NCBI GenBank assembly: GCA_945835885.1
Contig: CAMAJR010000001.1
Location: forward strand, 7,193 to 71,192
Length of the DNA stretch: 64,000 bases
Origin: an uncultured Alphaproteobacteria bacterium
GTDB taxonomy: Bacteria > Pseudomonadota > Alphaproteobacteria > RF32 > CAG-239
Direction of reading: 5' to 3'
Shown here piece after piece: positions 34,099-50,089 of the stretch. How positions within the stretch are numbered: the stretch's first letter is position 1; each line of letters begins with the position of its first letter. A program made the translations under genes and the position numbers. A model generated the notes under the pieces. That model did no database searches. It had not been told where the DNA came from and was given only the letters and a program-made list of their open reading frames with translations.

Positions 34099-34110
34099 AA
34101 AGGCGCTTTA

Positions 34111-35778
34111 ATGCTGAAATCACTCTCAATCCGAAATGTGATTTTGATTGATAAACTCGATTTAGATTTATCCGGTGGCTTTACTGTGCTCAGCGGTGAA
34201 ACCGGAGCCGGTAAATCTATATTGCTTGATTCGCTCGGGTTGCTTTTGGGACAACGTGCTGAAACATCGATGATTCGGTCGGGTTGTGACAAGCTCAGCG
34301 TCAGCGGTACTTTTGAGTATGCCGATAAAGACGGCGGTTTGGCACGCCTTTGTGCCGAACACGAATTGGAATATGAGCACGATATTTTAATCAGTCGCAC
34401 ATTGTCGCAAGACGGACGCGGCAAAATCTTTTTTAATGACCAGCCGATTACGCAAAAACTCTTGAAAGAAATCGGCTCGTTTTTGGTTGAAGTGCACGGG
34501 CAGTTCGATAATCAAGGGCTGTTGAATCCGGCAACACATTTAAGTGTGTTGGACGGTTATGGACGTTATCCGGCGGCGCTGAGTACGCTAAAGCAGGCCT
34601 ACGCGTGTTATAAAGAGGCGCAGAAAGCCCGTGAGATTGCTGAAAAAAATCTGACAGACGCGCAAACGGAAGAAGAAAATCTACGGCATTGGGTGCAGGA
34701 ATTTGCCGTAATTAAGCCGCGCGAAAATGAGCTTGATGAACTTGAACAAAAACGACAACTGATGATGAATGCCGAAAAATTGGCAGGCAATTTCAGTGCC
34801 GCTTATCAGTCACTTAACGGCTCGGCGCAGAGTGTGCGCGATAGTTTGCGGCAGGCCGAATCGGCAATTTCGCGGATTAACGGCTTAACTGATGACCAGT
34901 TCGTCAATATTTATGAAATGTTAGATACGGCACTGGTAAATGTAACAGAAGCAAGCAACGAAATTGAAAACGCACTCGGTGAAATCAATGTAAATCAAAA
35001 CGAGGCGGATAGTGTGGAAGAGCGTTTGTTCACACTCAAGGATTTGGCGCGCAAACATCATGTGGCTGTTGAAAATTTGCCGAATATTTGGCATGAAATG
35101 GAAGAAAAATTGTTGCATCTTGAACGCGGTGCCGATGATTTGAATGCGTTAAAACGTGCCGAAAAGCAGGCATTTGATGAATATGTTTTGAAAGCTGACG
35201 CTGTGCATTTTGAACGAATCGCGGCGGCCGAAAAATTAGATGCGGCTATGCGGCGTGAATTGCCGGCACTTAAAATGGAAAAGGCCGTATTTCAAACGCA
35301 AATCAATAAAAAAGCTGAAAATATGTGGAACGAAAACGGCTATGATGACGTGTGCTTTATGGTATCGACCAATGTCGGCACGCCTTTCGGCAGTTTAAGC
35401 AAAATCGCCTCGGGCGGCGAATTGGCGCGTTTTATGTTGGCACTTAAGGTTAATTTAGGACAAGCCGGTGCAATCGAAACAATGATTTTTGACGAAGTTG
35501 ATACCGGTATCGGGGGCGCAACGGCGCAGGCAGTCGGTGAAAAATTGGCGCAACTCGGTGCAAACAAGCAGGTTTTGGTGGTAACGCATTCGCCGCAAGT
35601 TGCCGCATTCGGCGCACACCATTTTAAGGTGGAAAAATTCAATGCCGACGGCGCAACCACAACGACGGTGCGTTTGCTCTCCGTAACCGAGAAACAGGAA
35701 GAAATCGCACGGATGCTGTCCGGTGAAATAATCAGTGATGAAGCACGAGCGGCGGCAAAAGTTTTGATTGGAGCGTAA
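34111..35778 (+). CDS. recN: DNA repair protein RecN
   Basis: 555 aa. N-terminal Walker A GETGAGKSILLD, long coiled coils, C-terminal SMC signature/Walker B. Confidence 0.9.
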   Translation: MLKSLSIRNVILIDKLDLDLSGGFTVLSGETGAGKSILLDSLGLLLGQRAETSMIRSGCDKLSVSGTFEYADKDGGLARLCAEHELEYEHDILISRTLSQDGRGKIFFNDQPITQKLLKEIGSFLVEVHGQFDNQGLLNPATHLSVLDGYGRYPAALSTLKQAYACYKEAQKAREIAEKNLTDAQTEEENLRHWVQEFAVIKPRENELDELEQKRQLMMNAEKLAGNFSAAYQSLNGSAQSVRDSLRQAESAISRINGLTDDQFVNIYEMLDTALVNVTEASNEIENALGEINVNQNEADSVEERLFTLKDLARKHHVAVENLPNIWHEMEEKLLHLERGADDLNALKRAEKQAFDEYVLKADAVHFERIAAAEKLDAAMRRELPALKMEKAVFQTQINKKAENMWNENGYDDVCFMVSTNVGTPFGSLSKIASGGELARFMLALKVNLGQAGAIETMIFDEVDTGIGGATAQAVGEKLAQLGANKQVLVVTHSPQVAAFGAHHFKVEKFNADGATTTTVRLLSVTEKQEEIARMLSGEIISDEARAAAKVLIGA

Positions 35779-37584
35779 ATGGCGGGGATTCAACACGGCA
35801 TTGAGGTCATTAAGGGCTATGTCAAAATTGCGCCGACCAACCCAGGTGTTTATCGTATGTTTGATGCTGTCGGCAAAGTTTTGTATGTCGGTAAAGCAAA
35901 AAATATTAAAAAACGAATCGTGGCTTATACGCATTTTGAGCGGCTGCCGGACCATATTAAGCGGATGGTGTCGGAAGTTGAAAAAATGGAGTTTATCATT
36001 GTTGAAAATGAAGCTAAAGCTCTGTTGATGGAAAATGATTTAATCAAAAAACTTGAACCGAAATACAATATTTTGCTCAAAGATGATAAAACATTTCCGC
36101 ACTTAATGATTAACCCGAATGAGGATTTTCCGGCTCTGCGTAAAAGTCGCGGGGCACGACGTGACAAAAGCAAATATTTCGGACCTTTTGCCAGCGCGAC
36201 GGCGGTCAACAATGTGATGGACATTATTCAAAAAACGTTCAGGTTACGCTCGTGTCGTGACAGCGTTTTTCATAATCGGGAACGACCGTGTATGCTATAT
36301 CAAATCAAGCGTTGCAGTGCGCCGTGCGTCGGAAAAATCAGCCGTGAAGATTATCATAAAACGGTAGACGAAGTGATTGCGTTTTTGGCGGGAAAAAACA
36401 GCGCACTTAAAGATAAGTGGTCGGCTCAAATGCAGGCAGCAAGTGATGCCGAAGATTTTGAAACCGCGCTTGTTCTGCGTGACCGAATCAGGACACTGAG
36501 CAGTATTCAGGGCGGGTATAACGTGGAATATGCCGATATTATGTCAGCCGACGCGGTGGCGGCGGTTAAACACAAAAATATGGTTTGTATTCAGGTGTTT
36601 TTTATTCGCTCGGGGCAGAATTGCGGTAATATACCGTATTTTCCGAAGCATGCGGCAGATATGACGGAAGAAGAAATTTTAGAAGGTTTTTTAAGCACTT
36701 TTTATGCCGAACATTTACCGCCGAAAGAAATTTATGTGTCGCACGAATTGGAAAATAAAGAGTTCTTGGAAGATGCCATCGGGACAAAAATCAATCGTTA
36801 TCAAAAAGGAAACAAGGCAAAATTGATAGAGCGGGCGCACGAAAATGCCGTGGCTGCAATAGAGCGCAAATTAGCCGAATCGGCAACGGTGGAATCGAAT
36901 TTAATCGAAATGCAGCGTTGTTTCGATTTGCCGCGCATTCCGCAACGAATTGAGGTTTATGACAATTCACACAATCAAGGCACTTATGCGGTGGGGGCAA
37001 TGATTGTGGCGACGCCGGAAGGGTTTGATAAAAAATCGTATCGCACGTTTAACATCAAATACACCGAAAATACCAATGACGATTTTGCGATGATGAAAGA
37101 AGTTTTAATTCGCCGTTTTGAGCGTATGAGCGATGAAAATCGTCCCGATGTGATATTACTCGACGGCGGGTTGGGACAGCTGCACGCCGTGCACGAAGCA
37201 CTTGCGGATTATGATTTGAGCGGTATTACGATTATTGCGATTTCAAAAGGGCCGGAGCGTAACGCGGGTAAGGAGTTTTATCATATTATGGGACGGGAAA
37301 GTTTTGATTTACCGTTTCAGTCGCCGATAGCGTTTTATATGCAAAATATTCGCGACGAAGCACACCGATTTGCCATCGGCACCCATCGTAAAAAACGCGG
37401 TAAGTCGATGTTTAAATCGGCCGTTGATGAGATTGACGGAATCGGCGCCAAGCGCAAGCGTGATTTGCTGAACTTTTTCGGCTCGGTCGAACAAATTAAG
37501 GCGGCGAGCGTGACTGACTTAATGAAAGTCGGCGGTATCAGCAAAAAAACGGCGGAAAAAATATATAAATACTTTCATAATTGA
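35779..37584 (+). CDS. uvrC: excinuclease ABC subunit C
   Basis: 601 aa. GIY-YIG N-terminus (PGVYRMFD...LYVGKAKNIKKR), UvrBC-interaction region, RNase-H-like and HhH C-terminus. Starts immediately after the recN stop. Confidence 0.9.
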   Translation: MAGIQHGIEVIKGYVKIAPTNPGVYRMFDAVGKVLYVGKAKNIKKRIVAYTHFERLPDHIKRMVSEVEKMEFIIVENEAKALLMENDLIKKLEPKYNILLKDDKTFPHLMINPNEDFPALRKSRGARRDKSKYFGPFASATAVNNVMDIIQKTFRLRSCRDSVFHNRERPCMLYQIKRCSAPCVGKISREDYHKTVDEVIAFLAGKNSALKDKWSAQMQAASDAEDFETALVLRDRIRTLSSIQGGYNVEYADIMSADAVAAVKHKNMVCIQVFFIRSGQNCGNIPYFPKHAADMTEEEILEGFLSTFYAEHLPPKEIYVSHELENKEFLEDAIGTKINRYQKGNKAKLIERAHENAVAAIERKLAESATVESNLIEMQRCFDLPRIPQRIEVYDNSHNQGTYAVGAMIVATPEGFDKKSYRTFNIKYTENTNDDFAMMKEVLIRRFERMSDENRPDVILLDGGLGQLHAVHEALADYDLSGITIIAISKGPERNAGKEFYHIMGRESFDLPFQSPIAFYMQNIRDEAHRFAIGTHRKKRGKSMFKSAVDEIDGIGAKRKRDLLNFFGSVEQIKAASVTDLMKVGGISKKTAEKIYKYFHN

Positions 37585-37647
37585 AAAATTTGTTTATAGT
37601 AAAAACAGAATTAACGTTAATTTTTTGTTTTTGTATGGGAGGCTCTC

Positions 37648-38352
37648 GTGTATAATTTACCGAATATTCTGACGATTTCAAGAATTATGGTGATACCGCT
37701 GATTTTTATGTCGGTATTTCAGTTTGCGCCATTTAATACTTATGCTTGGGCAATGTTTGCGGGCGCTTTGTTTATTGCTGCTTCAATTACGGACTATCTT
37801 GACGGTTATTTGGCGCGTGCGTGGAATCAAACATCGGCGTTCGGTCGTTTGTTGGACCCGATTGCCGATAAACTTTTGGTGGCAACGGCTTTGGTGGTGA
37901 TTTTGGTAAAGCCGGATATGTATACGTGGAATTATACGGTTATTGCCGTGTTTGTAATTTTATGCCGAGAAATATTGGTGTCCGGATTGCGCGAATTTTT
38001 GCGTGAGGTTAATGTCGGTTTGCCGGTAACAAAATTGGCTAAATGGAAAACAACGTTCCAAATGACGGCGCTTGCGATGATGCTGTTCAAAGATTTGTGG
38101 ATTTGGTGGAGCTATGTCGGCGAAGGGTTGCTTTGGGTTGCCGCAGTTCTGACGTTTATTACCGGCTATCAGTATTATCAAAAGAGTTTGGATTACGTCA
38201 AAGAGGAAGAAGAACGCAGACGGAATCCGATTAAAAAAATGGCATCGGCGGTTAAAGCGGTTGCCGAAAAAATGACAAGTAAAGCGGCAGTTTCCAAAAA
38301 ATCAAAATCGGTTAAAAATTCAAAAATCGGGGCGAACGACAAGAAGGCATAA
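37648..38352 (+). CDS. pgsA: CDP-diacylglycerol--glycerol-3-phosphate 3-phosphatidyltransferase
   Basis: 234 aa. GTG start. CDP-alcohol phosphatidyltransferase motif DGYLAR...G...DPIADK. Lys-rich C-terminal tail. Confidence 0.8.
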   Translation: MYNLPNILTISRIMVIPLIFMSVFQFAPFNTYAWAMFAGALFIAASITDYLDGYLARAWNQTSAFGRLLDPIADKLLVATALVVILVKPDMYTWNYTVIAVFVILCREILVSGLREFLREVNVGLPVTKLAKWKTTFQMTALAMMLFKDLWIWWSYVGEGLLWVAAVLTFITGYQYYQKSLDYVKEEEERRRNPIKKMASAVKAVAEKMTSKAAVSKKSKSVKNSKIGANDKKA

Positions 38353-38364
38353 GGATAAACGCCG

Positions 38365-39054
38365 ATGATGAGTGATTGTCCGCATATTTTGGTTATTGAT
38401 GACGATGCACGTTTGCGTGCTTTGTTGCAACGTTATTTGCAGGAAAACGGTTTTGCCGTGACCGGTGCCAAAGATGCCGAAAATGCGAGAATGTTCTTAA
38501 GGCAATATTGTTTTAGTTTGCTGATTGTTGATGTGATGATGCCTAATGAAACCGGTATTGAATTTTTGCACAAATTCAGAAAAGAGAGCGATATTCCGGC
38601 GATTGTGTTGACCGCTATGGGAGAAACTGAGGACCGTATTGTCGGTTTAGAGGCCGGTGCCGATGATTATCTGCCAAAGCCGTTTGAACCAAAAGAATTA
38701 GTGCTGCGAATTAATAATATATTGCGCCGCGTTCCGACCAAGCAAAAAGAAAATGTGCAGATTTTGAAGTTTGGCGAATGTAGTTATGATTTAAACACAA
38801 AAGAATTCAGCCGTCGTGATGTCGGCACAATCCATATTACGCCGGTAGAACAATCGATTTTGAGCATTTTAGGGCAAAAAAACGGGCAGATTTTTACGCG
38901 TGAACGATTGGCGGAGTTACTCGGCGTCGGACAAAGTCCGCGCTCGATTGATGTGCAAATCACGCGCTTGCGTAAAAAAATCGAAGCAGATTCAAAAAAT
39001 CCGCGCTATTTGCAAACAGTGCGCGGTAAAGGTTATATGTTGTTAACAGAATAG
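38365..39054 (+). CDS. OmpR-family two-component response regulator
   Basis: 229 aa. Receiver domain (ILVIDDD...D at the phospho-acceptor position) plus winged-helix trans_reg_C (RLRKKIE...RGKGYML). Confidence 0.85.
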   Translation: MMSDCPHILVIDDDARLRALLQRYLQENGFAVTGAKDAENARMFLRQYCFSLLIVDVMMPNETGIEFLHKFRKESDIPAIVLTAMGETEDRIVGLEAGADDYLPKPFEPKELVLRINNILRRVPTKQKENVQILKFGECSYDLNTKEFSRRDVGTIHITPVEQSILSILGQKNGQIFTRERLAELLGVGQSPRSIDVQITRLRKKIEADSKNPRYLQTVRGKGYMLLTE

Positions 39055-39063
39055 GAGAGAAAA

Positions 39064-40419
39064 ATGCACGTTAGATTTCCAAAAAAGATTGATGGGTTTT
39101 TGTCGTGGATGAAACGAAAGTTTGTGCCGAAAACGATGTTCTTCAGAACAATGTTGCTGATTTTTGTGCCGCTGATTGTGGTGCAAGTGGTGTCGATTTA
39201 TACGTTTTTGAACAGCAGTTGGACGCGTGTCGGACGCAAACTTTCCGATAATATGGCCGAGAATATGGCATTTATTATTCAAATGCATAATGAAGATTTT
39301 GATTTTGAGCGTATTAAAACAATGGCGGCAACACAATATGGGCTTGATGTCAGTTTTTATGATAATGACAGCAAGCATTCTGTTTGGCGTGAAAATAAAA
39401 AACACGACCAGTTTGCAACGCGCTATTTTAATGAGGCATTAGATAGAAAATTTCCGGTGGCAAATACGGAAGTTTTCTTAACATCGCATCACTCGAATTT
39501 GAATGTGTTGATAGATACCGACAACGGGCTGTATGTGTTTAACACGCCGGTGAAAAATATTTTCAGCACGTCGATTTTCGGTTTTGTGCTGTGGATGATT
39601 GGCAGCGCGCTGTTTTTGTTTGTGGTTGCGGCATTATTCTTGCGGATTCAAGTGCGTTCGATTGCGCAATTGGCTGATGCGGCAGAGGATTTCGGTAAAG
39701 GTATCAATACCAAGTTTAAGCCATACGGCTCGGTTGAAGTGCGTCGTGCCGGTTTGGCCTTTACTAAAATGAAAGAGCGCATTTTACGTCAGATTTCTGA
39801 GCGCACACAAATGCTTGCCGGTGTTTCGCACGATTTGCGCACACCGTTGACTCGAATGAAATTGCAAATGGCAATGCTTCCGGACAGCAAAGAAAATCAG
39901 GAGTTTGTGCAGGATATCAACGAGATGGAGAAAATGCTCGACGGCTATTTGGCGTTTGTTAGCGGTGAGGGGGGCGAAAAGTCGACCTTTATCGACCTTA
40001 ACGAGATGATCTCAAGCATTATCGGCAAATATCGCAAAAATTCAAATGCTATGATTCGGTTTGCAACGAACTATGATGTGAGTGCCGTGCAGGGACGTGA
40101 GCAAGCGTTACGCCGTGCAATTACCAATGTGATTGAAAACGCATTCCATTACGGCAAAACGATTGCGGTGCATCTCGATAGTGATGCAAAGCACGTTCAG
40201 CTCAGTATTGATGATGACGGACCGGGTATTCCGGCGGATAAACGCGATGATGTGTTTAAGGCGTTTTACCGTGTTGACGGCTCTCGCAATAAAGAAACCG
40301 GCGGTGTCGGTTTGGGGCTTTCGATTGCGAAAGATGTGGTGGTTTCTCACGGCGGTTCAATAGAATTGTCCGACAGCGAATTAGGAGGCTTGAGGGTTCT
40401 CATTACTTTGCCCTTATAG
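39064..40419 (+). CDS. EnvZ-like sensor histidine kinase
   Basis: 451 aa. Two TM helices flanking a periplasmic domain, a HAMP linker, H-box SHDLRTPLTRM, N/G1/G2 boxes (GGVGLGLSIAKDVV). Confidence 0.85.
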   Translation: MHVRFPKKIDGFLSWMKRKFVPKTMFFRTMLLIFVPLIVVQVVSIYTFLNSSWTRVGRKLSDNMAENMAFIIQMHNEDFDFERIKTMAATQYGLDVSFYDNDSKHSVWRENKKHDQFATRYFNEALDRKFPVANTEVFLTSHHSNLNVLIDTDNGLYVFNTPVKNIFSTSIFGFVLWMIGSALFLFVVAALFLRIQVRSIAQLADAAEDFGKGINTKFKPYGSVEVRRAGLAFTKMKERILRQISERTQMLAGVSHDLRTPLTRMKLQMAMLPDSKENQEFVQDINEMEKMLDGYLAFVSGEGGEKSTFIDLNEMISSIIGKYRKNSNAMIRFATNYDVSAVQGREQALRRAITNVIENAFHYGKTIAVHLDSDAKHVQLSIDDDGPGIPADKRDDVFKAFYRVDGSRNKETGGVGLGLSIAKDVVVSHGGSIELSDSELGGLRVLITLPL

Positions 40420-40490
40420 ACGGCTGAGCAAATATATTCGTCGCACCACATATTCGTGGTAAAATGCGGATAACGGATTATGTCTGAAAA

Positions 40491-40617
40491 CCTGACCGTC
40501 ACTGAGGAGGCGGATGCCGACGTGAGGATTTTATGCGTTGCCGTGCGGCCTTTGGCATTATAAAACGGCAATATAATCACTTTGCGGTGATTGCACGGCG
40601 TTTTAGGAGATTCTTCA
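40491..40617 (+). repeat. copy A of a ~130-bp structured repeat element (inverted partner at 43830..43957)
   Basis: About 80-85% identity to the reverse complement of 43830..43957. Contains nested hairpins (ttgccg/cggcaa; aatcac-tttgcg-gtgatt; gccgtgc/gcacggc). Shared core atgccgacgtgag. Confidence 0.6.
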
Positions 40618-40714
40618 TTTCTCTGACGCTGCATTCAGAATCGCGTGCTTTTGCTCAATGCCTCGGGCGTTATAAAGAGACAAGATAATCATTTTTTTAT
40701 TTAACAGGGCGTAA

Positions 40715-40751
40715 AGAAAAAATCCTTCAGTGTGATGCTGAAGGATTTTTG
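40715..40751. terminator. perfect 10-bp hairpin with flanking A/T runs (bidirectional terminator)
   Basis: aatccttcag-tgtgatg-ctgaaggatt, then TTTT; A-run upstream. Confidence 0.5.
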
Positions 40752-40767
40752 CAAAATATTTCTTATT

Positions 40768-40956
40768 TTATTTTTTGCCGCCGCGGCCGCCGCTCTTTTG
40801 TTCAAGCAAAGCATTGATAAGCGCATCGTTACGGATAGAAGAGCCCTTTGGCGGTTTCTTCTTTTCCGACTCCGGCTGCTTTTGGGAAATTTGTTCTTCA
40901 TCAGGATTATTAGGAGCAGGAAATTCGTAAGTTTTTCCCGAAATTGTGATAGTCAC
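40768..40956 (-). CDS. hypothetical small Lys/Pro-rich protein (GTG start)
   Basis: 62 aa. GTG start preceded by GAGGAAGA. Lies between the small lipoprotein gene and a terminator. Weak support. Confidence 0.25.
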   Translation of the reverse strand: MTITISGKTYEFPAPNNPDEEQISQKQPESEKKKPPKGSSIRNDALINALLEQKSGGRGGKK

Positions 40957-41040
40957 GCGCTCTTCCTCTGTATGAGGCGTGAAAAAGTTATTACTGTTAT
41001 CAATAGTGTCCGAATGGATTGTTGGACGTTTTGTTTCTGT

Positions 41041-41244
41041 TCATTTTCTGTCATCGGATTCTCTGCCATCGGATTTTCCGCTTTTTTCAGCAGTCCAATT
41101 TTCAAAATTATTTGTTGACAATTCTGTCTGCGTTTTTTTATTTTCTTCTTGGTTCTCGTTTTTGTTCTCGCAAGATGTTAAAACGAGAACGCCGGCAATA
41201 GACATAACTGTCCCCATTGCAATTTGTTTCCATTTATCAGCCAT
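41041..41244 (-). CDS. small acidic lipoprotein
   Basis: 67 aa: MADKWKQIAMGTVMSIAGVLVLTSC... Lipobox VLTSC. AAGGAG RBS 7 nt upstream of the ATG at 41244. The ORF-track start at 41268 is less likely. Confidence 0.4.
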   Translation of the reverse strand: MADKWKQIAMGTVMSIAGVLVLTSCENKNENQEENKKTQTELSTNNFENWTAEKSGKSDGRESDDRK

Positions 41245-41373
41245 TGTTTTTCTCCTTATAATGCTCAATTATAACTTCATTTTATTTTACTGTTAGACAA
41301 AAGTTAAGTTTTTTTTACAAAAAAAAGACCGAATTGCTTCGGTTTTTAAGAATTTTTGTTGACTTTTAGACTT

Positions 41374-42351
41374 TTAGAGTCGAATGACTGCGCCGCCCCA
41401 AGTAAAACCAGCGCCCATCGCCGTTAAAACAATGACATCGCCATTATGAAAACGTCCGGCTTCCATATTCTCGGAAAGTGCCAACGGAATCGAGGCCGCC
41501 GAGGTGTTGCCGTGGTGGTCAACCGATACGATAACTTTTTCTTTCGGCAGTTCCATACGTTCACCGACACTTTCAATAATGCGGATATTCGCTTGATGCG
41601 GAATAAGCCAATCAATATCTTTTTTGCTGATTTTTGCTTTTTGCAGGGCGGTTTCTGCCGCTTCCGATAAACTGACGACCGCGTGTTTAAACACTTCTTT
41701 GCCGTCCATTTGCACAAAACCGGCCGTTTGAGTGGAGGAAACGCCACCGTTTGTTTTGAGATGGTCAAATTGTGCGCCGTTAGCATAAAGACAGGTGCTT
41801 AACACGCCGGTATCTTCAGCCGTTCCTTTTCCTTCACAAGCGCGTAAAACGGCAGCTCCGGCCCCGTCGCCAAACAAAACGCAGGTGTTTCTGTCTGTCC
41901 AATCAACAATTTTTGAAAGACATTCTGCACCGACAATAACGGCTGTTTTAACTTGGCCGAGGCGAATCATATTGTCTGCCAGTGTCAGCGCATATACAAA
42001 TCCGGAGCAGGCCGCCGATATATCAAACGCAATCGCGCCGGCACGAAAACCGAGTTTGCCGGCAACCTTGGCAGCTGTTGACGGTGTCGTGTTATCCGGT
42101 GTTACGGTTGCGACAATCAACAAGTCAATATCTTGCGGTAACAAACCGGCATTTTTTATCGCTTTTTCTATTGCGTAGCCGGCTAAAACCGAGGTTGTTT
42201 CATCTTCTGAAGCAATATGGCGCAGACAAATTCCGGTGCGCGTGCGAATCCATTCATCATTAGTTTCAACCATATGCGATAAATCGTCATTGGTTAAAAT
42301 TTTATTCGGTAAATAGTGCCCAAAGCCGACTAATTTGCTTCTAATATACAT
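41374..42351 (-). CDS. fabH: 3-oxoacyl-ACP synthase III
   Basis: 325 aa. Active-site Cys region (AFDISAACSGFVYAL), His/Asn motifs, C-terminal GAGFTWGGAVIRL. Confidence 0.9.
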   Translation of the reverse strand: MYIRSKLVGFGHYLPNKILTNDDLSHMVETNDEWIRTRTGICLRHIASEDETTSVLAGYAIEKAIKNAGLLPQDIDLLIVATVTPDNTTPSTAAKVAGKLGFRAGAIAFDISAACSGFVYALTLADNMIRLGQVKTAVIVGAECLSKIVDWTDRNTCVLFGDGAGAAVLRACEGKGTAEDTGVLSTCLYANGAQFDHLKTNGGVSSTQTAGFVQMDGKEVFKHAVVSLSEAAETALQKAKISKKDIDWLIPHQANIRIIESVGERMELPKEKVIVSVDHHGNTSAASIPLALSENMEAGRFHNGDVIVLTAMGAGFTWGGAVIRL

Positions 42352-43405
42352 CGTATAATATGTCCTGAGATAATTCGTCTAAATCAACGTGTTCTACTTC
42401 ATCACGAATTGTTTGCACAAAGTGTTGGCGAACAAGCTTAGAGGCATTGTCTATGGCGTATGAAAAACCGAGCGAATCGGTCCCGCCGTGACTCTTTACT
42501 GACAAACCGTTTAAGCCGACAAACATTGCGCCGTTATATTTACGCGGGTCCATCTTTTTTTTCAAGGCCCAGATAACCGGCAATAAGAACGGTAAGCCGA
42601 TTTTGGACCATATCGATTTTTTGATTGTTGTTTTCAAAATGCTTGAAATAAGTTTTGCGGTGCCTTCCATTGTTTTAAGAGCGATATTGCCGGTAAAACC
42701 ATCTGATACAATGACATCGGCATATCCCTCACCGATTTGATGCGGTTCAATATAACCGATAAAGTTCAAATCAAGATGGGTGTTCTTAATCATTTTGGCT
42801 GCCTGATGAATTTCTTCACGGCCTTTCATTTCTTCGGCACCGATATTCAAAAGAGCAATACGCGGACGGGCAATATCAAGCGCATGACGTGCCAATATAT
42901 TGCCGATAATCGCAAATTCCGCCAAATTGACGGCGCTGCATTCGGTATTGGCGCCCAAATCAAGCATTACGCACATACCGCTTTTATGCGGAATATTCGT
43001 GCAAATTGCAGGGCGATGAATACGTTGAATTGTTTTAAGGAGCATTTTGGATATAGCCATTAAAGCACCGGTATTTCCGGCGGATATAACGGCCTCGGCT
43101 TCGCCTTTGCGCACGGCGTCAATAGCCATATACATACTAGTGTTTTTGTTGCGGATAACTTGCGACGGTTTATCTTCGTTGCGCACAAATTCCGGTGTAT
43201 GAATGATTTTGCAATAATCTTTCATTTTTGGAAAACGCTTAAAGTCAACATTGATTTTTTCTTCGTCGCCAAACAACAAAAACTTAATATCGGGATTATT
43301 TTTATGTGCTAAATTTATCCCTTCCACTACGATGCGAGGGGAATTATCTCCCCCCATTGCATCTACAGATATGACCAGATTATTTTCAGACAAAACCTGC
43401 TCCAT
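42341..43405 (-). CDS. plsX: phosphate acyltransferase PlsX
   Basis: 354 aa. Full PlsX similarity (ISVDAMGGDNSP, SHGGTD). Confidence 0.9.
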   Translation of the reverse strand: MEQVLSENNLVISVDAMGGDNSPRIVVEGINLAHKNNPDIKFLLFGDEEKINVDFKRFPKMKDYCKIIHTPEFVRNEDKPSQVIRNKNTSMYMAIDAVRKGEAEAVISAGNTGALMAISKMLLKTIQRIHRPAICTNIPHKSGMCVMLDLGANTECSAVNLAEFAIIGNILARHALDIARPRIALLNIGAEEMKGREEIHQAAKMIKNTHLDLNFIGYIEPHQIGEGYADVIVSDGFTGNIALKTMEGTAKLISSILKTTIKKSIWSKIGLPFLLPVIWALKKKMDPRKYNGAMFVGLNGLSVKSHGGTDSLGFSYAIDNASKLVRQHFVQTIRDEVEHVDLDELSQDILYDVY

Positions 43406-43426
43406 ATTTTATAAGTTCAAAAAAGA

Positions 43427-43612
43427 TTATTTTGCCGCCTTTTGAGCAACAACATCTTTGCCATCATATTGACCGCATTTCGGGCAAACATGATGAGGTC
43501 TCTTGAGTTCGCCGCAATTCGGGCATTCCTGATACGCATTCGGCGTCAAGGCATCATGCGAACGGCGCATATCGCGACGAGATTTTGATACTTTTTTCTT
43601 TGGTGTAGCCAT
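43427..43612 (-). CDS. rpmF: 50S ribosomal protein L32
   Basis: 61 aa. [22 protein letters not shown] plus zinc-ribbon CPNCG...CPKCG. Confidence 0.9.
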
Positions 43613-43829
43613 TTTTCTTCTCTTTAGTTAATTACATTACACAAACATTCGGCGCTATAAATAGCACAGCTTTATTTAAAAAGCAAGCAAAATATCGCAA
43701 CCGAACAATTATGCTCTCTTGTATATACTTTTTTTGCGCTTTGCAAGCATTTTTTTTATTTTATTTGTTCTATATAACAAAATTGTTGAAAAAGCAAGCA
43801 CGCCATTCTGAGGCAAAGGCGAAGGAGGC

Positions 43830-43957
43830 GAAGAATCTCCTAAGACGCTGTGCAATCTACCGCAAAGTGATTATATTGCCGCTTTATAACACCCGAGGCT
43901 GCACGGCGGGAGAGGGGATTCTCACGTCGGCATTCTCCTCCTCAGGATGACCGTCAT
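43830..43957 (-). repeat. copy B of the ~130-bp structured repeat element (inverted relative to copy A)
   Basis: Reverse complement aligns to 40491..40617 (gaagaatctcctaa...ccgcaaagtgattatattgccg...ctcacgtcggcat...cctcctcag). Lies at the 3' end of the minus-strand gene 44083..44706, just after that gene's terminator. Confidence 0.6.
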
Positions 43958-44082
43958 ATTTTTTGCTCATATTTCAACAAATTCGTTTAACAAAGCGTTT
44001 TTATTCTGATTTTCAGGGGAAAAATAAAAAAAACGGAAAGCGTATGTTTCGCCTTCCGCGCAGAAAGTTATCGGGCAATAAA

Positions 44083-44706
44083 CTACAACGCCGGTATGTT
44101 AATGGCGGCAATCTGCCCCGGCTTAATACGTTGTTGCCCGTAGTGCATATTATTTACTTCAATCATATAGGCCTCACGTCCCGTCCATTTGGCGGCGGTC
44201 GTGTAAAAGTCTTTGCCCGACACTTCTTGCGTTTTCGGGTTGACGATATATAATACGCACGGTTGCTGATATTCTACCAAACCGCAACGACTGCGTCCTC
44301 TCGGAACATCGGGGTTAAATACAACACCATCCAAGCCCTGACCGGTAACGGTGCGCGAACGCGGAGCCACCATATAGCCGAGTATTATACCGATTAAACA
44401 AGCAATAAACATCAATATCTGAACATTTTTGCTTTGAATAATATCTTTCATCGACTCAGTGTGCTCATTATACAACTCCGCATCGGTAATAAAGTGAATG
44501 CTCTCTGCTTCACCGTTGTTATCAAAGATAATATTATCGCCGTTATCTGAAAAAAATGAATCCGGTGACGACGGCTGCTGTTCCGGTTGCGTATAGTTGA
44601 CTTTCGTCGGGGTTCCGAAACTGGTCGGCTGATTAATCGGCTGAGTTTTTATCTTTTTGATTTTTCTTAATTTTCTCGGTGGAACTGAATTTGGTGTATC
44701 TGCCAT
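44083..44706 (-). CDS. hypothetical bitopic membrane protein (possible secretin/pilus-assembly partner)
   Basis: 207 aa. Pro/Ser/Gln-rich cytoplasmic N-terminus, one TM (ILMFIACLIGIILGYMV), ~110-aa periplasmic C-terminal domain. Starts 17 bp after the secretin-like gene. Confidence 0.45.
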   Translation of the reverse strand: MADTPNSVPPRKLRKIKKIKTQPINQPTSFGTPTKVNYTQPEQQPSSPDSFFSDNGDNIIFDNNGEAESIHFITDAELYNEHTESMKDIIQSKNVQILMFIACLIGIILGYMVAPRSRTVTGQGLDGVVFNPDVPRGRSRCGLVEYQQPCVLYIVNPKTQEVSGKDFYTTAAKWTGREAYMIEVNNMHYGQQRIKPGQIAAINIPAL

Positions 44707-44723
44707 AATAAAACCTCGTCAAA

Positions 44724-46004
44724 TTAAAGATTATTTTTAACTTTTTCATTTGTTTTTAGGGTGCGAATCAAACGCGGAACCATAAAGACAATGGTTTCCG
44801 ACTTAGGCGAATCGATGCCGAACAGTTCGTTTGGCAAGCCAATCATCAGGAAATTTTCGCCGAGTTTGCTTCTAATATTAAATTTTGTGACTTGACCGTC
44901 GGTAACTTCCAAAGTGGCATCCGTAAAGATTTTATTGCCTTTTTCAACAGAGGCCTTTGCCAAGATGGACATCCCGTAAGGGTCTGCGCCCGGTGCACTG
45001 CATTTGCCGATATCAAACCGCGCCAACCACAAGTTCGGAACAACAAATTTGCCTTCGGAAACTGCTTCAATTCTTGCTTGATTACCAAGGAATTGCTGCA
45101 ATTTTTCAACCGAAATATCGTTGCTGGTGGTCAAAATGCGACCGATAACGCCGGTCTGCGCCGTGGTAATTGAGCCGAAATCAAACGCGTTCAGCATCTC
45201 TTTCCACTCAATATCTTTCGATTGGTCAAACGGATAAAGCCGGAAGACGCTGACATCGTAGGCCACTAAAGTAGGGCTTCCTTCAAAAAACTTTATCAGT
45301 TCGGTTATCTTCTTTTGGGTATCTATGTCGGCATCAAAGGTTATCGAGTAATCCGACCAATTTGCCACAATATTTGTAATACCGGCACCGCGAATCACGT
45401 CAAGCAAACCAAGCATTATCGGGCGAGAATGCGGCAGATACAGCGTCATATTGGCGTGACGACTCATTGTCAGGATTTTATCTTTAGCATTATAAGAATA
45501 ATAAACACCGGCAGATTCGGCAATCATTTTAATAACCTCAGAAAATTCACCCTTCAAATCTTGCGCCGAAATGCTGGTATAAGGTCCGTCAGCTGACGAA
45601 ATACGAATCCCGGCTTCTTTGGTCAGACGCACCATTGCTTGTTCGGCCGGCATCATATCGAATGTAAAGCCGTTGACTTTAAAGCGCGGTAACGGGTCGT
45701 TTTGACCGTTGCGTTCGAGCTTAAAGGCAGATTTGGCATACGGCAGGGTTAAAATCATTTGTTGGTCTTCCCAGTTGACGTTGCAACGAAGCGGGGTTTC
45801 CAAATCGAGTGCATTGGCACCTTCTGTCGTGCGAATCATATACGGATTTTGCTTTTCCGATTTTAGAGGTTCGACTTTTAAGCTTTCCTGATACTCTTCT
45901 TCCAATTCTTTAAGAAGGACTTCCTGATCTTCAACACATGCTGCCAAAACAATGGCTAAAGCTGTCAGAAAAATGTAAAAACTTATTTGATAAAACTTTT
46001 TCAT
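44724..46004 (-). CDS. secretin-family outer-membrane lipoprotein (compact secretin with N0/N1-like and C-terminal secretin domain)
   Basis: 426 aa. Lipobox IVLAAC. C-terminus GENFLMIGLPNELFGIDSPKSETIVFMVPRLIR resembles the conserved secretin C-domain tail (IPxLGxLFG....E..iFitPri). Size and lipidation resemble T4bP/BfpB/TcpC/PilN-type secretins. Confidence 0.5.
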   Translation of the reverse strand: MKKFYQISFYIFLTALAIVLAACVEDQEVLLKELEEEYQESLKVEPLKSEKQNPYMIRTTEGANALDLETPLRCNVNWEDQQMILTLPYAKSAFKLERNGQNDPLPRFKVNGFTFDMMPAEQAMVRLTKEAGIRISSADGPYTSISAQDLKGEFSEVIKMIAESAGVYYSYNAKDKILTMSRHANMTLYLPHSRPIMLGLLDVIRGAGITNIVANWSDYSITFDADIDTQKKITELIKFFEGSPTLVAYDVSVFRLYPFDQSKDIEWKEMLNAFDFGSITTAQTGVIGRILTTSNDISVEKLQQFLGNQARIEAVSEGKFVVPNLWLARFDIGKCSAPGADPYGMSILAKASVEKGNKIFTDATLEVTDGQVTKFNIRSKLGENFLMIGLPNELFGIDSPKSETIVFMVPRLIRTLKTNEKVKNNL

Positions 46005-46023
46005 GCGTTTGCTTTCCGTTAAG

Positions 46024-46539
46024 TTATGATTGATTCTGCTTATTTTCGCTATTGTTTTGAGCGTTTTCGGACATCAGTTTATTCATTAAATCATCGATAT
46101 TCATACCGGCACCGACAGTCGGATCGACAGCTTTATCGAAATTGCTCATAACTTCGTTCATTTTTTGAGCCTCGTTCGGGTCTGTCCGAAGCATCTCCGG
46201 CGATTGATTATTCGTCAATTCTTTTTGATAAAGAGATAAATTTTTCTTTAAGGCGGCAATACCGCCGGCAATTTTCTTTTCAACATAAGGATGCAGTTCT
46301 TTGTGTTCTAAAATATAATTACCCGTATCGCAAATTTCTTCTAAAACATCTAAAATATACGGATAAAATTTATATTCTTCCAAAGCAATGTTACCCATGC
46401 GCACGCAACGGGCTGCGATTCGTGATATTGTGCGGTCGTAATAATCAATCAACACAATATAATTATGCACATACCACAAGCTGTCTTTAGATACGGCCGG
46501 TCCGATGTTTTGCGGTGTGTTTGTATATGCTTCTGCCAT
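46024..46539 (-). CDS. hypothetical soluble protein
   Basis: 171 aa. No signal peptide. No recognisable motif. Asn/Gln-rich tail. Confidence 0.45.
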   Translation of the reverse strand: MAEAYTNTPQNIGPAVSKDSLWYVHNYIVLIDYYDRTISRIAARCVRMGNIALEEYKFYPYILDVLEEICDTGNYILEHKELHPYVEKKIAGGIAALKKNLSLYQKELTNNQSPEMLRTDPNEAQKMNEVMSNFDKAVDPTVGAGMNIDDLMNKLMSENAQNNSENKQNQS

Positions 46540-46612
46540 AATTTGTCCCTCTACAATGTTTTCAGTTTAATCGCATACGTTTTATTTGTAAATATATTTT
46601 TGCGGATATGCG

Positions 46613-48925
46613 CTAAGCTTTAATCGGATTACCGTTTTCATCAACATATTCATATTCCCATTCGTCATCGTCGGACGGATTTATCGGGTTGCCGTTTTCA
46701 TCGACGTATTCATACTCAACGTTATCATCAGACGGATTTATCGGGTTGCCGTTTTCATCGACGTATTCATATTCAACGTTATCGTCAGACGGATTTATCG
46801 GGTTGCCGTTTTCATCGACGTATTCATATTCATATTCGTATTCCCATTCGTTATCGTCCGAAGCTTCGTTCGGTGTATCGCTGCCGCCGATATATTTCCA
46901 AGAGCTATCGGCAAAAGCAGAAGCGGTGTTATCGGTCGGAGTATTGTTATGGTTACTTTGCGCAGTAAAAGAATCATCGGCAGAAAAGGCATTTTGCAAA
47001 TCATCTTCCGGCGAAAGCGAGATTGGCGAAATATCGTCATCAAAATCGTTAAGTGAAATTTGTTTGTCGGGATGAAGTGCGCTGCGAATTTGCGCCATTG
47101 GGTCAAAGTCTTTTGTTATTTGCTCGGAAGCCGGTGTCGCAATATCGTCAATCTCTTTCGTCGAATCCGAAAAAACGGTGTCAAAAGCTTGTGCAAAAGA
47201 ATCGGCTTGCAGACTGTCGTCCTCCTTCTTTTGCGTATTTTCCGAATGTAAGGAATTGGCGACTTGCGCAAATATATCGTTAATATCAATTTCGTTGTCT
47301 GCCAAATCGTTATTCCTTATATCGTGTTCGGAGTTTGAATTGACCTGAGATAAATCGTTCACAACCGAATCGGCCTTCTTTTCCGGTTTTTGTTCTTTCT
47401 TCGGCTCTTGTTTCGGTGCTTGTTTAACTTCCGGTTTTTGTTCTTTCTTCGGCTCTTGTTTCGGCGCTTGCCGGACTTCCGGTTTTTGTTCTTGCTTCGG
47501 CTCTTGTTTCGGCGCTTGTTTAACTTCCGGTTTTTGTTCTTTCTTCGGCTCCTGTTTCGGCGCATTCTTTTCGGTGCTTGTATTCTTTTGCGGTGTGATA
47601 ACCGACTTAGAAACTTTTTCTGAAATATCTGCCTCAATATTTTCGGAAGCGGACGCACTTAATACGCTCACCGGTTTCGGTTTGTTTGGCGCGCTGTAAG
47701 AAGTTTGATTTTTTGCTTGAGCGGAAGGTGTTGAATTAGTCGCATCTTCAGTCGGCACTTGCATAAATTTATCAAAAATTGATGAATTGTGATTTGAGGT
47801 TTTAATTGAAGAAATCAATTCGCGTTGCGAATCGGTAATTGTTTTTGAAAGCATTTCACCGAACGACTTCAGAACATTCATTTGCTGTTGTGCATTTTCT
47901 TTAAGCACGGTCGATATTGAATCTGTAAAATTCGGTAGCAATACACCATTGGAAGAAGTGTTTTGCTGCACAATATTGTTTGTAGCAATTTGTTTGATAC
48001 TTTCCGTTAAATTTTCCAAATTATGCGAATAGGCCTCAAACGATGCCGTCAGGGCTTTAGAAAAATCTCCGCCGAGTTCAATAGATGCCGGAGATGCCGA
48101 TACAACAGGAGTTTGGTGTTGGTTTTCGGCAATTTTTTTTACGCTCTTGGTTAAATCCTCTAAGTTGCGGGCATAAGTATCAAACGATGTTGTCAGCGAT
48201 TTTGCAACTTCTCCGTCAAGTTCGGAAGATGCCGAAGTTGACGGTGCCGAATGATGGCTCTCCGCAATTTGTTTAATGCTGGAAGTTAAATCTTTCAGGT
48301 CTTGTGAGTAGGACTGAAAGGAAGCGGTTAACGCCTTGGTGTAATCATTATTCGGAGTGCTTCCGGCAGAGTGTGTCGGTGTATTCAGAGCCATTTTTTG
48401 AATGTTTGCCGATAAATCTTTCAGATTTTGCGAATACGCCTTAAATGAATCGGTCAATGCATTGGTAAAATCACTGCTTAATTCTATCGGAGCTGAAACA
48501 ACTTGCGGTGCGATTGCCGGAACGCCTGCCGGTGCTGCTAATGCCGGCGCAGATGGTGCCGCGGCGATTTTATTGTCGGAAAAGTGGTCGTTTTGCGAAA
48601 GAGAAAGCAACAAAGCATCAAGGGCCGGATCTCTTTTTCCGGCTTCTTCCATCAATTCGGCAATATGCTCAAGCAAAACGCGTCCGCCCGGTAATAAAGC
48701 AATAATTTTGCGGATTTCTTGAGGTATTTCAAGAAGTTGTTTCTTGAATTGTTCTTGTCGGAACTCTTTGAAAATGTGAATTTGGTGGAAAATGTTCAGA
48801 TAACGTTGAGCCGTCAGAAGGACATCTTCTTCGTCATCTTTATTTCCTTTAAATTCTGCATTTGCATTAAGTTCGGTATTGCTATTATCCGATTGCGTGA
48901 CAAGATTATTATTTTCTTCCGACAC
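46613..48925 (-). CDS. large hydrophilic multi-repeat protein (candidate secreted effector / surface protein)
   Basis: 770 aa. GTG start with AGGAG upstream. No signal peptide. Five copies of a ~40-aa module (x-LT-SF-xYSQ-L-DLT-SIK-IAE), four copies of a KQEPKKEQKPEVKQAP 16-mer, C-terminal EYEYVDENGNPINPSDDNV 19-mer x4. Confidence 0.6.
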   Translation of the reverse strand: MSEENNNLVTQSDNSNTELNANAEFKGNKDDEEDVLLTAQRYLNIFHQIHIFKEFRQEQFKKQLLEIPQEIRKIIALLPGGRVLLEHIAELMEEAGKRDPALDALLLSLSQNDHFSDNKIAAAPSAPALAAPAGVPAIAPQVVSAPIELSSDFTNALTDSFKAYSQNLKDLSANIQKMALNTPTHSAGSTPNNDYTKALTASFQSYSQDLKDLTSSIKQIAESHHSAPSTSASSELDGEVAKSLTTSFDTYARNLEDLTKSVKKIAENQHQTPVVSASPASIELGGDFSKALTASFEAYSHNLENLTESIKQIATNNIVQQNTSSNGVLLPNFTDSISTVLKENAQQQMNVLKSFGEMLSKTITDSQRELISSIKTSNHNSSIFDKFMQVPTEDATNSTPSAQAKNQTSYSAPNKPKPVSVLSASASENIEADISEKVSKSVITPQKNTSTEKNAPKQEPKKEQKPEVKQAPKQEPKQEQKPEVRQAPKQEPKKEQKPEVKQAPKQEPKKEQKPEKKADSVVNDLSQVNSNSEHDIRNNDLADNEIDINDIFAQVANSLHSENTQKKEDDSLQADSFAQAFDTVFSDSTKEIDDIATPASEQITKDFDPMAQIRSALHPDKQISLNDFDDDISPISLSPEDDLQNAFSADDSFTAQSNHNNTPTDNTASAFADSSWKYIGGSDTPNEASDDNEWEYEYEYEYVDENGNPINPSDDNVEYEYVDENGNPINPSDDNVEYEYVDENGNPINPSDDDEWEYEYVDENGNPIKA
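46626..46850 (-). repeat. 57-bp tandem repeats (x4) in the 3' end of the 770-aa gene
   Basis: ggatttatcgggttgccgttttcatcgacgtattcat... recurs with a 57-bp period. Encodes EYEYVDENGNPINPSDDNV. Confidence 0.85.
47381..47572 (-). repeat. 48-bp tandem repeats (x4) inside the 770-aa gene
   Basis: ttccggtttttgttctttcttcggctcttgtttcgg... with a 48-bp period. Encodes the Lys/Pro/Glu-rich 16-mers. Confidence 0.85.
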
Positions 48926-48939
48926 TACAGATGGCTCCT

Positions 48940-48975
48940 CTCTTAAAATTCACTCTCTCCATTCTACAACAGAGA
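48940..48975 (-). terminator. 8-bp inverted repeat hairpin between regulator gene and 770-aa gene (terminator or operator-like)
   Basis: actctctc-(12 nt)-gagagagt. Only a weak T-tract on the minus strand. Confidence 0.3.
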
Positions 48976-49015
48976 GAGTAAATTTCTTGTTAAAATCACA
49001 TAAGCATTAAGATTA

Positions 49016-49990
49016 TTACAAGTTAATAACCGCAACTTTATGCAACTTTGTCAAATCGCTGTTAGAAAAGTTTATTCTCTCGTCAGGATTCCAACGCAAA
49101 CCGTAAAGTTGACCGTTTTCATCTTCGCGAATACTGAGTAATTTTGTTTCGGTATCGCTTGCGTAAAACAAAGCTATGTCACCGGAACTTACGACTTCGT
49201 TCGGATCAATAATCAAAACGGAGCGACTGGACAATAAAGAGCCCAAACGCCGAGAGCACAAGTTGACCGCATAAATATTGTGCTTATGCTGCAACTGGGT
49301 AGGGCAAGCGATTTCTTTAAAATTGGTGCGTGTGTCTATAATGATGTTGCCTTCACTGTCACCAGAACCGTAGACCGGTATCATAATATCATTATCACTT
49401 TCTGTAGATGAAAGACCGATGTTAGCGTAACGTGCATTGTTCAAAAGTTTGTAACGTGTGTCGTTATGTTCGATAATATCTTCGAGCTGTCCGCCGGCTT
49501 CAAGCGCTTGAATTTCGGCCTTAAGCTTATCAACCGTAGTAGAAAAAGCTTTGGCAATATTTTTGTATTCTTTATCGGAAACTTCGCGTTGTCCCATTTC
49601 AATACGATGGTAGACGGAAAGAGTCATATCTGCGTGTTCGGCAACTTCAATCAAGGTCAGTCCCTTATTGGTGCGGATATGGCGTAAGCCGGCTCCAAGT
49701 GTCTTCAGTCCGGCAGTCTGATTAATTTTGCTGCGACGCTCTTGCTCACGTTTCCATGCCTGAACAACATCTTGCTGTGAGTTTTGCTCGTTGACGTATA
49801 AATCTTGTAGCGAACAATCAAGTAATTCGGCAACTTGAATCAGCTGTTCTTGATTTAACCGGCGATAACCCTTTTCAATTTTAGAAATAGCAGACAAACT
49901 GACACCCAAATGGTCAGCCAACTCTTGCATCGGCATACCATGCAGGCGACGATGCATTCTTATTTGATTTGGGAAAATAATTTCTTCCAT
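49016..49990 (-). CDS. XRE-family transcriptional regulator with two tandem HTH domains and a C-terminal beta-rich domain
   Basis: ORF track start at 50035 lies in AT-rich DNA. ATG at 49990 (MEEIIFPNQIR...) with AGGGGT RBS is preferred. HTH 1: MQELADHLGVSLSAISKIEKG. HTH 2: LTLIEVAEHADMTLSVYHRIEMG. C-terminal ~150 aa possibly S24/LexA-like, but no clear GDSM. Confidence 0.7.
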   Translation of the reverse strand: MEEIIFPNQIRMHRRLHGMPMQELADHLGVSLSAISKIEKGYRRLNQEQLIQVAELLDCSLQDLYVNEQNSQQDVVQAWKREQERRSKINQTAGLKTLGAGLRHIRTNKGLTLIEVAEHADMTLSVYHRIEMGQREVSDKEYKNIAKAFSTTVDKLKAEIQALEAGGQLEDIIEHNDTRYKLLNNARYANIGLSSTESDNDIMIPVYGSGDSEGNIIIDTRTNFKEIACPTQLQHKHNIYAVNLCSRRLGSLLSSRSVLIIDPNEVVSSGDIALFYASDTETKLLSIREDENGQLYGLRWNPDERINFSNSDLTKLHKVAVINL

Positions 49991-50089
49991 TTTTAACCCC
50001 TGTAAATACATAATATTTAACATCATAATATTCATTTAGGGACAAAATGCAAGCCAAAAATAGCGATTATATACAAAATTTATTTGCGC

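Follow-up and report, generated by a model that had tools for sequence, protein, structure and literature searches.

A probable family of palindromic, non-coding repeats bordering the rpmF-plsX-fabH operon of an uncultured gut alphaproteobacterium

The rpmF-plsX-fabH genes of an uncultured gut alphaproteobacterium are bracketed by two non-coding sequences, here called A and B, that are copies of one another in opposite orientation. They lie in the window, the 64-kb stretch of contig CAMAJR010000001.1 (GenBank assembly GCA_945835885.1) that was analysed and to which all positions refer; for copy counts, the contig was extended to 77 kb of the same genome. With a probability of roughly 0.68, we interpret A and B as members of a family of palindromic elements of about 180–190 bp, of the kind that includes MITEs (miniature transposable elements with inverted repeats), REPINs and ERIC sequences, in uncultured gut and rumen Alphaproteobacteria. 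The loci used for comparison are referred to by L numbers; 80 of them (about 1.2 Mb) come from a PlsX-based scan of GTDB species representatives and are mostly from metagenome-assembled genomes of uncultured rumen and gut Alphaproteobacteria or proteobacteria. The best PlsX match was L005 from sheep rumen (95%), and the species of the window is itself not among the GTDB representatives. Exact protein matches put the window among contigs of pig-gut and other gut metagenomes; pig-gut samples with this species include ERZ27292448, ERZ11448883, ERZ28658042 and SRR5976183.

The first-pass annotation of the window had proposed an inverted pair of a repeat of about 130 bp, and this pair is real. Pairwise blastn of 40440-40720 on the plus strand against the reverse complement of 43760-44010 gives 109 identities over 135 positions (81%), with 7 gap positions and an E value of 1e-25, and the alignment spans 40487-40616 and 43956-43830. 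A repeat search resolves the same pair into four ungapped inverted blocks of 88–93% identity, and the core that had been described as common to both copies, ATGCCGACGTGAG, is present in A and in B. Similarity at a lower level runs on to about 40650 and 43796, with a 16-nt block about 20 nt downstream (TCAGAATCGCGTGCTT in one copy and TCAGAATGGCGTGCTT in the other). A profile built from A and B, when run on the 64-kb window, recovered these two copies and, in addition, a 36-nt fragment that directly adjoins the right end of A in the same orientation (Table 1).

The limits of B were placed where its palindromic symmetry stops, and homology of the native flank with L172 reaches 43786, immediately outside them. 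Logan contigs (k=31) end at 43947/43948, which is 29–30 nt inside the upper border. On the side of A, homology of the kinase flank to L005, L165 and L170 stops at 40461-40473, before the copy begins. The orientation of the copies relative to the upstream transcription units was also described correctly, A following the histidine kinase gene on the plus strand and B following the gene for a 207-aa protein (p207) at 44083-44706 on the minus strand. The implied position at the 3' end of the upstream unit has to be qualified for B, since an intrinsic terminator at 44059-44033 separates it from the p207 gene and leaves it outside the 3' untranslated region (UTR), between that terminator and the rpmF promoter region.

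The element is an imperfect palindrome, in which the left arm aligns with the reverse complement of the right arm in A, in B and in a third full copy, C, from another species. The unit measures 178–191 bp. When intact, it consists of two mirror-image arms, each about 75 nt long; beyond the left end lies an A-run and beyond the right end a T-run. The inner termini of B are GTCATCCTGAGG...CCTCAGAATGGC, followed outwards by the A-run and T-run and then by an outer TTGAAA...TTTCAA, and the terminal inverted repeats read GTCATCCTGAGG / GCCATTCTGAGG in B and GTCATCCTGAGGAGCG / GTCATTACGAGGAGCG in C. B folds end to end, with a minimum free energy of −61 to −62 kcal/mol on the plus strand (z −3.8 to −4.5 against shuffled sequences), and C does so on both strands (z −2.7 to −4.2). 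That B and C fold end to end on both strands (z −2.7 to −4.5) indicates that the symmetry resides in the DNA. The arms of C differ from those of B in a matched fashion, palindromy being kept between these two diverged copies. The folding of A is no better than that of shuffled sequence (z −0.5 to −1.4, not significant, and about 0 in three strains). The nested hairpins that had been attributed to both copies are therefore found in B, as one long imperfect hairpin, and not in A. Within A, the core at 40502-40529 (GGCGGATGCCGACGT) agrees at 14 of 15 positions with the left half of the Escherichia coli REP consensus (GCCKGATGNCGRCGY), a resemblance that is probably due to chance.

At the positions it occupies in the window, the element was found in none of the 80 related loci, which were searched with two-copy, three-copy and arm profiles and with a covariance model (R1). 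The two closest species, represented by L005 and by L165/L166/L168, each share about 85% DNA identity and the gene order of the window. Site B is empty in L005 and L165, where the spacer measures 17 nt and 85 nt, respectively, against 250–318 nt in the window, with the T-run of the terminator recognizable on one side and the rpmF promoter block on the other; it is also empty in L166 and L168. Site A is without the element in L005, L165, L166 and L170, the spacer being short in L165 and occupied in L005 and L166 by an unrelated mosaic of about 440 nt composed of other palindromic modules.

Copy C lies at 11644-11829 of L164 (nhmmer E 5e-19; R1 125 bits; about 70% identity). L164/L192 is a 117-kb contig from bovine rumen that was reached via a PlsX cluster member and belongs to another species, whose PlsX is 91.7% identical. 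The site, between a 535-aa gene and a PNP_UDP_1 gene, is unrelated to those of A and B. In L007, which is 94.5% identical to L164, the full copy is missing, and the gap is bounded by direct CCTCGTAATGACG. The spacer at this site lengthens from about 10 nt (L008) through 354 nt (L007) to 779 nt (L164). A right-arm fragment at L164:11563-11625, 97% identical to C and located 100 nt upstream of it, is present in both L164 and L007. Isolated half-units are thus L164:11563-11625 and L007:15323-15381, together with a weak one at L012:198-273 and a weaker one in L023.

Other palindromic modules form mosaics in spacers of the clade (L164:11080-11640, L007:15100-15320, L005:7600-7690 and L166:6280-6330). 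Recurring examples are units beginning with GTCATCCCTCGAAGTGCGC and the module ACCTTGA.GCACG...CGTGC.AGGTATGAC, and L164 contains an internal duplication of 122 nt that is 96.7% identical.

Comparison of strains indicates how the copies change once in place. In L004, with an overall identity to the window of 98.6%, 7 substitutions fall within about 140 nt of A (5% versus 1.4% overall), several of them bringing back the base that B has. In L174, which is 98.96% identical overall, 13 differences fall within about 90 nt of B (window 43813-43900), compared with about 1% overall; some of these variants are A-like and others are new, and the hairpin weakens from −61 to −54 kcal/mol. The A-like variants in B suggest gene conversion among copies, while the new ones look like conversion from copies not seen here, strain heterogeneity being the other possible source. 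The decay of the element is fast, is not compensatory and proceeds regardless of the fold.

The behaviour of assemblies around B is also consistent with a repeat. Contigs built with Logan, SPAdes and MEGAHIT from several samples stop at both of its borders, at 43802-43840 when approached from inside the block and at 43947-43973 when approached from the p207 side, as expected of a repeat that is common to other loci. These contig ends suggest that further near-identical copies exist. Contig ends at A were dropped as evidence of this type, since two contigs there overlap by exactly k−1 (40517-40546), like an ordinary branch between strain variants.

Several observations weigh against a mobile family. 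The copy number is low, with two full copies and one fragment in the 77 kb of the window genome (the extension from 64 kb added none) and one full copy and one fragment in 21 kb of the L164 genome, while about 1.3 Mb of other related loci gave nothing but two or three weak half-units. The first-pass annotation had offered a dispersed palindromic element as one of its options. In kind this is upheld by the palindromy, the empty sites, the presence of copy C elsewhere, the adjoining fragments and the assembly breaks, but in place of the many copies it envisaged, the roughly 1.5 Mb of this clade that was searched gave 3 full copies and 3–4 fragments. As exact patterns, a left-arm 21-mer had no match in GTDB representatives and a right-arm 21-mer had none in JGI metagenomes. 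A relaxed 17-base arm motif gave 68 matches in JGI and 2 in IMG/VR, all of them attributable to chance after nhmmer re-scoring, and blastn against plasmids and phages returned no match. No transposase, RAYT or recombinase domain was found among the window ORFs (open reading frames) that were checked, nor was a transposase domain seen in the fetched relative loci. A clear target-site duplication could not be read in the AT-rich flanks of the copies. B is flanked by AATTTGTTGAAAT / AATTTTGTTATAT-like strings that overlap the outer palindrome, the CCTCGTAATGACG bounding the insertion of C is itself an element terminus, and A lacks a duplication. The contig breaks at B could instead result from strain heterogeneity of a hypervariable stretch. 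Finally, both full copies in 77 kb lie at the junctions of a block whose orientation is reversed in a sister lineage, a coincidence that insertion of a mobile element leaves unexplained.

This coincidence is the starting point for a different explanation, according to which A and B are recombination substrates, homologous or site-specific, that caused or still cause inversion of the block between them. Relative to L170 (PlsX 94%), window positions 34037-40473 and 44081-49993 are collinear and 41384-43766 is inverted, aligning to L170 9113-6726. The kinase gene of L170 is followed directly by rpmF, and fabH faces the homologue of the 207-aa gene. The breakpoint intervals, 40473-41384 and 43766-44081, contain A and B, with A starting 7 nt past the end of homology. 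In L172, a third order is found, in which the block corresponding to 32972-27999 (BamD, LpxC, RNase P, outer membrane protein, PGM and a 137-aa gene) abuts the rpmF promoter, reusing the junction upstream of rpmF, while the fabH-to-p207 junction is of the L170 type. Three gene orders of the rpmF-plsX-fabH module thus occur among five closely related species, and the junction upstream of rpmF abuts the 3' end of the p207 gene in the window, that of the kinase gene in L170 and that of the 137-aa gene in L172. The more distant L164 shows yet another neighbour at this junction, the mraY-ftsA division cluster.

The inversion sites suggested by the first-pass annotation bracket a block that is inverted in L170 and rearranged again in L172, and A and B are the only full copies in 77 kb. 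Even so, we consider it unlikely that they are the recombination substrates. L005 and L165/L166 have the window's gene order without the repeat at either junction, L170 and L172 also lack it, and no other inverted-repeat pair was found at the junctions of L005, L165/L166, L170 or L172. Distances suggest the topology ((window,(L005,L165)),(L170,L172)), under which the inversion predates the split of the window from species devoid of the repeat. A and B differ by 19%, which, considering the 5% divergence between strains, looks younger than that split. All contigs with the exact kinase, 207-aa protein or FabH of this species have a single orientation, with 9 samples spanning junction 1 and 4 spanning junction 2, in assemblies, which can hide minority orientations. 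Moreover, no recombinase domain lies within about 10 kb, and Pfam searches over ~34-55 kb revealed no recombinase, integrase or invertase.

The inversion in the sister species most likely predates the insertions of A and B. In the most economical reading, the two spacers are permissive, rearrangement-prone edges of an operon module where the repeats arrived later. In this reading, the repeats mark such spacers and need not have caused the inversion. It is conceivable, though doubtful, that the spacers around rpmF-plsX-fabH owe their fragility to palindromic repeats of this kind, which would have played a causal role and then been lost. This possibility is raised by the fact that the same two junctions were rearranged at least twice among five species and that repeats sit exactly there in one lineage. 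If it were true, an essential operon for a ribosomal protein and lipid synthesis would be flipped or moved again and again by short-lived hairpin repeats that are then deleted without trace. The arrangement recalls that of invertons, in that a segment containing a promoter lies between inverted repeats and is found the other way round in a related species. Unlike in invertons, however, the repeats, about 180 bp long, are no more than 81% identical, an essential operon of 3.1 kb makes up the segment, no invertase is nearby, a single orientation is found within the species, and the relatives with the other orientation are without the repeats.

Another explanation is that the element is a structured RNA or cis element selected by the host, whether a small RNA of the 3' UTR, a long bidirectional terminator or insulator, or a hairpin that stabilizes mRNA. 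It would account for the significantly greater stability of the B and C hairpins compared with shuffled sequences, for the A-runs and T-runs flanking the palindrome, as in bidirectional intrinsic terminators, and for the probable location of A in the 3' UTR of the kinase operon. Of the 47 consensus pairs in A, B and C, 7 have changed on both sides. We nevertheless regard it as quite improbable. In the covariation analysis across copies that the first-pass annotation had proposed, the RNAalifold term for A, B and C is unfavourable (+1.68), and the fold has been lost in A and is weakened in B by changes between strains. The better-folding strand in B is the opposite of that in C, with no strand consistently favoured, and no relative has the element at the corresponding positions. 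B is preceded by a good terminator and followed by the rpmF promoter, and no promoter motif is conserved inside the element. In Rfam, only RNase P (30934-31346) was matched in the window at gathering thresholds, and at E<=10 over 40350-44100 nothing overlapped A or B. With no Rfam match, no conservation, changes that weaken the fold, no strand preference and a B copy outside the 3' UTR, the earlier suggestion of a small RNA family embedded in 3' UTRs is not supported.

That the element carries a real miniature gene is highly improbable. Both antisense ORFs reported over the repeats exist and translate into similar repeat-derived peptides, and they were rightly called spurious, as they have no protein homologues and are absent from public gene calls. 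A search of 5.8 billion proteins found no homologue of their peptides, and all that an exhaustive profile search turned up were weak, summed matches to long proteins of repetitive sequence. The candidate gene would instead be a short ORF on the sense strand, which in each of the three copies starts at an ATG close to the left end and gives the products MSENLTVTEEADADVRILCVAVRPLAL (A), MSKKYDGHPEEENADVRIPSPAVQPRVL (B) and MRHPEERSDVRISLGAVRH... (C). The three copies share a common frame through an EE..DVRI..AV stretch, in which indels between copies sum to multiples of 3, and both substitutions between L004 and the window in this ORF are synonymous. However, none of the three ATGs is preceded by a Shine-Dalgarno sequence as read from the sequence, A and B differ at about 14 nucleotides of the common frame with only 2 synonymous changes, and the frame of C diverges after about 20 codons. 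When the 51-aa sense ORF was used as a protein query, only the same locus in another strain matched. Public gene callers skip the ORFs of the element, except for one 51-aa call in a single strain, and the residues in common are explained by the conserved nucleotide palindrome. The fast decay indifferent to the fold, the lack of an Rfam match and the ORF without a ribosome-binding site lead us to discard, as the principal explanation, an RNA gene under selection as well as a peptide gene.

Two further candidates were discarded. An attC or integron site does not fit the inverted rather than direct orientation, the lack of R'/R'' motifs and the essential operon as cargo, and intramolecular replicative transposition does not fit the flanks, as no reverse-complement flanks were exchanged between A and B.

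As palindromic mobile repeats, A, B and C can be compared with several described families. Palindromic MITEs comprise the 127-bp ERIC/IRU of Enterobacteriaceae and Vibrio, YPAL of Yersinia, Correia/NEMIS of Neisseria, QMITE of Coxiella and RPE of Rickettsia (in part from PMC10969869 and PMC3184786). Like these, the element has a size of 100–200 bp, within the span of about 50–500 bp that characterizes MITEs, is non-coding, has inverted termini and would form a long stem-loop if transcribed. It likewise occupies AT-rich spacers at the ends of genes in either orientation, varies in presence among close relatives and generates spurious short ORFs. RPEs also occur in Alphaproteobacteria, but, unlike RPE, no copy of the present element was seen inside a gene. 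It further departs from these families in copy number, with 3 full copies documented here versus tens to hundreds there, in that no clear target-site duplication was found and in that no parent insertion sequence is known. By sequence it is unlike ERIC, the core ERIC1R and ERIC2 22-mers having 0 matches at up to 3 mismatches.

The likeness to REP/REPIN sequences, which are mobilized by RAYT (PMC3116915), lies in the doublet of inverted arms forming one hairpin, in the half-units that correspond to singlets, and in the clustering of copies in mosaics with other palindromic repeats within one spacer (L164:11080-11855). The arms, in contrast, are about 75 nt long versus 20–40 nt in REP, the head reads GTCATCC instead of the conserved GTAG, and the 77 kb of the window genome contains no RAYT (Y1 transposase) gene. 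RIME and BIME of Rhizobia and enterobacteria offer a parallel, in that several unrelated palindromic modules occupy one alphaproteobacterial spacer that grows stepwise between relatives. The host clade differs, being one of uncultured gut Alphaproteobacteria, and the likeness is one of general description.

If A and B are indeed members of a mobile palindromic family, the unit would be moved in trans by an enzyme encoded elsewhere, either a transposase acting on the inverted termini or a RAYT-like single-strand transposase acting on the hairpin. It would land in permissive spacers at the ends of transcription units and decay neutrally thereafter. B would then be a fairly young copy, still strongly palindromic, inserted between the terminator of the upstream gene and an untouched rpmF promoter, and A an older copy, now degraded and probably within the kinase operon's 3' UTR, next to the stump of a still older copy. 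An intact unit, if transcribed, would form a long hairpin that might, if so used by the host, add termination or stabilize the 3' end of an mRNA. The inverted pair could also allow the 3.1-kb block to be inverted by homologous recombination, an inversion not found in this species.

Such a family would add a previously undescribed palindromic repeat to a poorly known clade of uncultured gut and rumen Alphaproteobacteria, and would account for the two spurious ORFs and for a point at which assemblies of pig-gut metagenomes repeatedly break. In itself it is an element of an ordinary, unexceptional kind. Of greater interest, as a by-product, are the recurrent break points flanking the essential rpmF-plsX-fabH operon, and the case bears on whether hairpin repeats drive operon-scale inversions.

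Table 1. Repeat copies, genes and regulatory features in and around the rpmF-plsX-fabH block (window positions).
Feature	Position	Strand	Remarks
Copy A	40480-40657	+	Strong homology to B at 40487-40616; nhmmer E 1e-58; covariance model R1 148 bits at 40498-40644
Copy B	43787-43977	-	Better preserved than A; R1 155 bits at 43802-43951
Fragment of a third copy, central part only	40660-40695	+	31 of 36 positions (86%) match the centre of B; E 1e-5 to 6e-8 (blastn)
HisKA/HATPase_c histidine kinase gene	39064-40419	+	Upstream of A
Gene for 207-aa product (p207)	44083-44706	-	Upstream of B
62-aa ORF	40768-40956	-	In the bracketed block
67-aa ORF, putative lipoprotein	41041-41244	-	In the bracketed block
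fabH	41374-42351	-	Pfam ACP_syn_III
plsX	42341-43405	-	Pfam FA_synthesis
rpmF	43427-43612	-	Pfam Ribosomal_L32p
Bidirectional terminator-like hairpin	40720-40752		AAAAATCCTTCAG..CTGAAGGATTTTT; 13-bp stem; read from the sequence; kept in L005 and L166
Intrinsic terminator of gene 44083-44706	44033-44059	-	Terminator scan: 10-bp stem with 6 GC pairs, then a T8 run
Conserved rpmF promoter/leader block, ~150 nt	43613-43766	-	B about 20 nt upstream; block intact
Spurious ORF over copy A, antisense	40347-40634	-	No homologue; not in public gene calls
Spurious ORF over copy B, antisense	43711-43950	+	No homologue; not in public gene calls

The surroundings of the two copies are summarized in Table 1. 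A is located between the stop codon of the kinase gene and the hairpin at 40720-40752, upstream of the latter on the plus strand. This hairpin, which a simple terminator scan did not list, may be a terminator common to the kinase operon and the convergent 62-aa gene, and its position suggests that A is probably transcribed as part of the kinase operon 3' UTR. A separate hairpin, TACCAC-6 nt-GTGGTA at 40443-40461 on the plus strand, lies about 20–25 nt past the kinase stop codon and is kept in L005, L166 and L170 despite the variable spacer.

On the other side of the block, the region upstream of rpmF has a core of about 68 nt (AAAAAAATGCTTGCAAAGCGCAAAAAAAGTATATACAAGAGAGCATAATTGTTCGGT) that L005 shares unchanged and L165/L166/L168 and L170 almost unchanged. 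This conservation is far above the genome-wide level of 80–88%, and the core contains two TGCTTGC boxes; the block may represent a strongly constrained promoter, operator or leader. The spacer on the fabH side (window 40768-41244) is a variable cargo slot, which houses the 62-aa and 67-aa ORFs in the window, nothing in L165, and genes of 265 aa, 228 aa and 734 aa in L166, L170 and L172, respectively.

Elsewhere in the window, a class A RNase P RNA (275 bits) is encoded on the plus strand at 30934-31346, between the outer membrane protein gene and lpxC, and an ORF at 16784-17482 on the minus strand encodes a PilS/bundlin-like type IV pilin. From 44083 to 64000 and beyond (L159), there is a long run of minus-strand genes, most of them without a Pfam match. 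Its large products comprise proteins of 2185 aa with Peptidase_M23, 907 aa, 953–1023 aa with a weak TrbL match and 770 aa with a faint SSSPR-51 match, and an HTH_3 regulator is encoded as well. This run could be a secretion- or conjugation-like island or one of surface proteins. It is present in group I and II relatives and is not located beside plsX in L164. The copy number of its internal tandem repeats at ~50.5-50.75 kb and ~62.5-63.3 kb differs from strain to strain.

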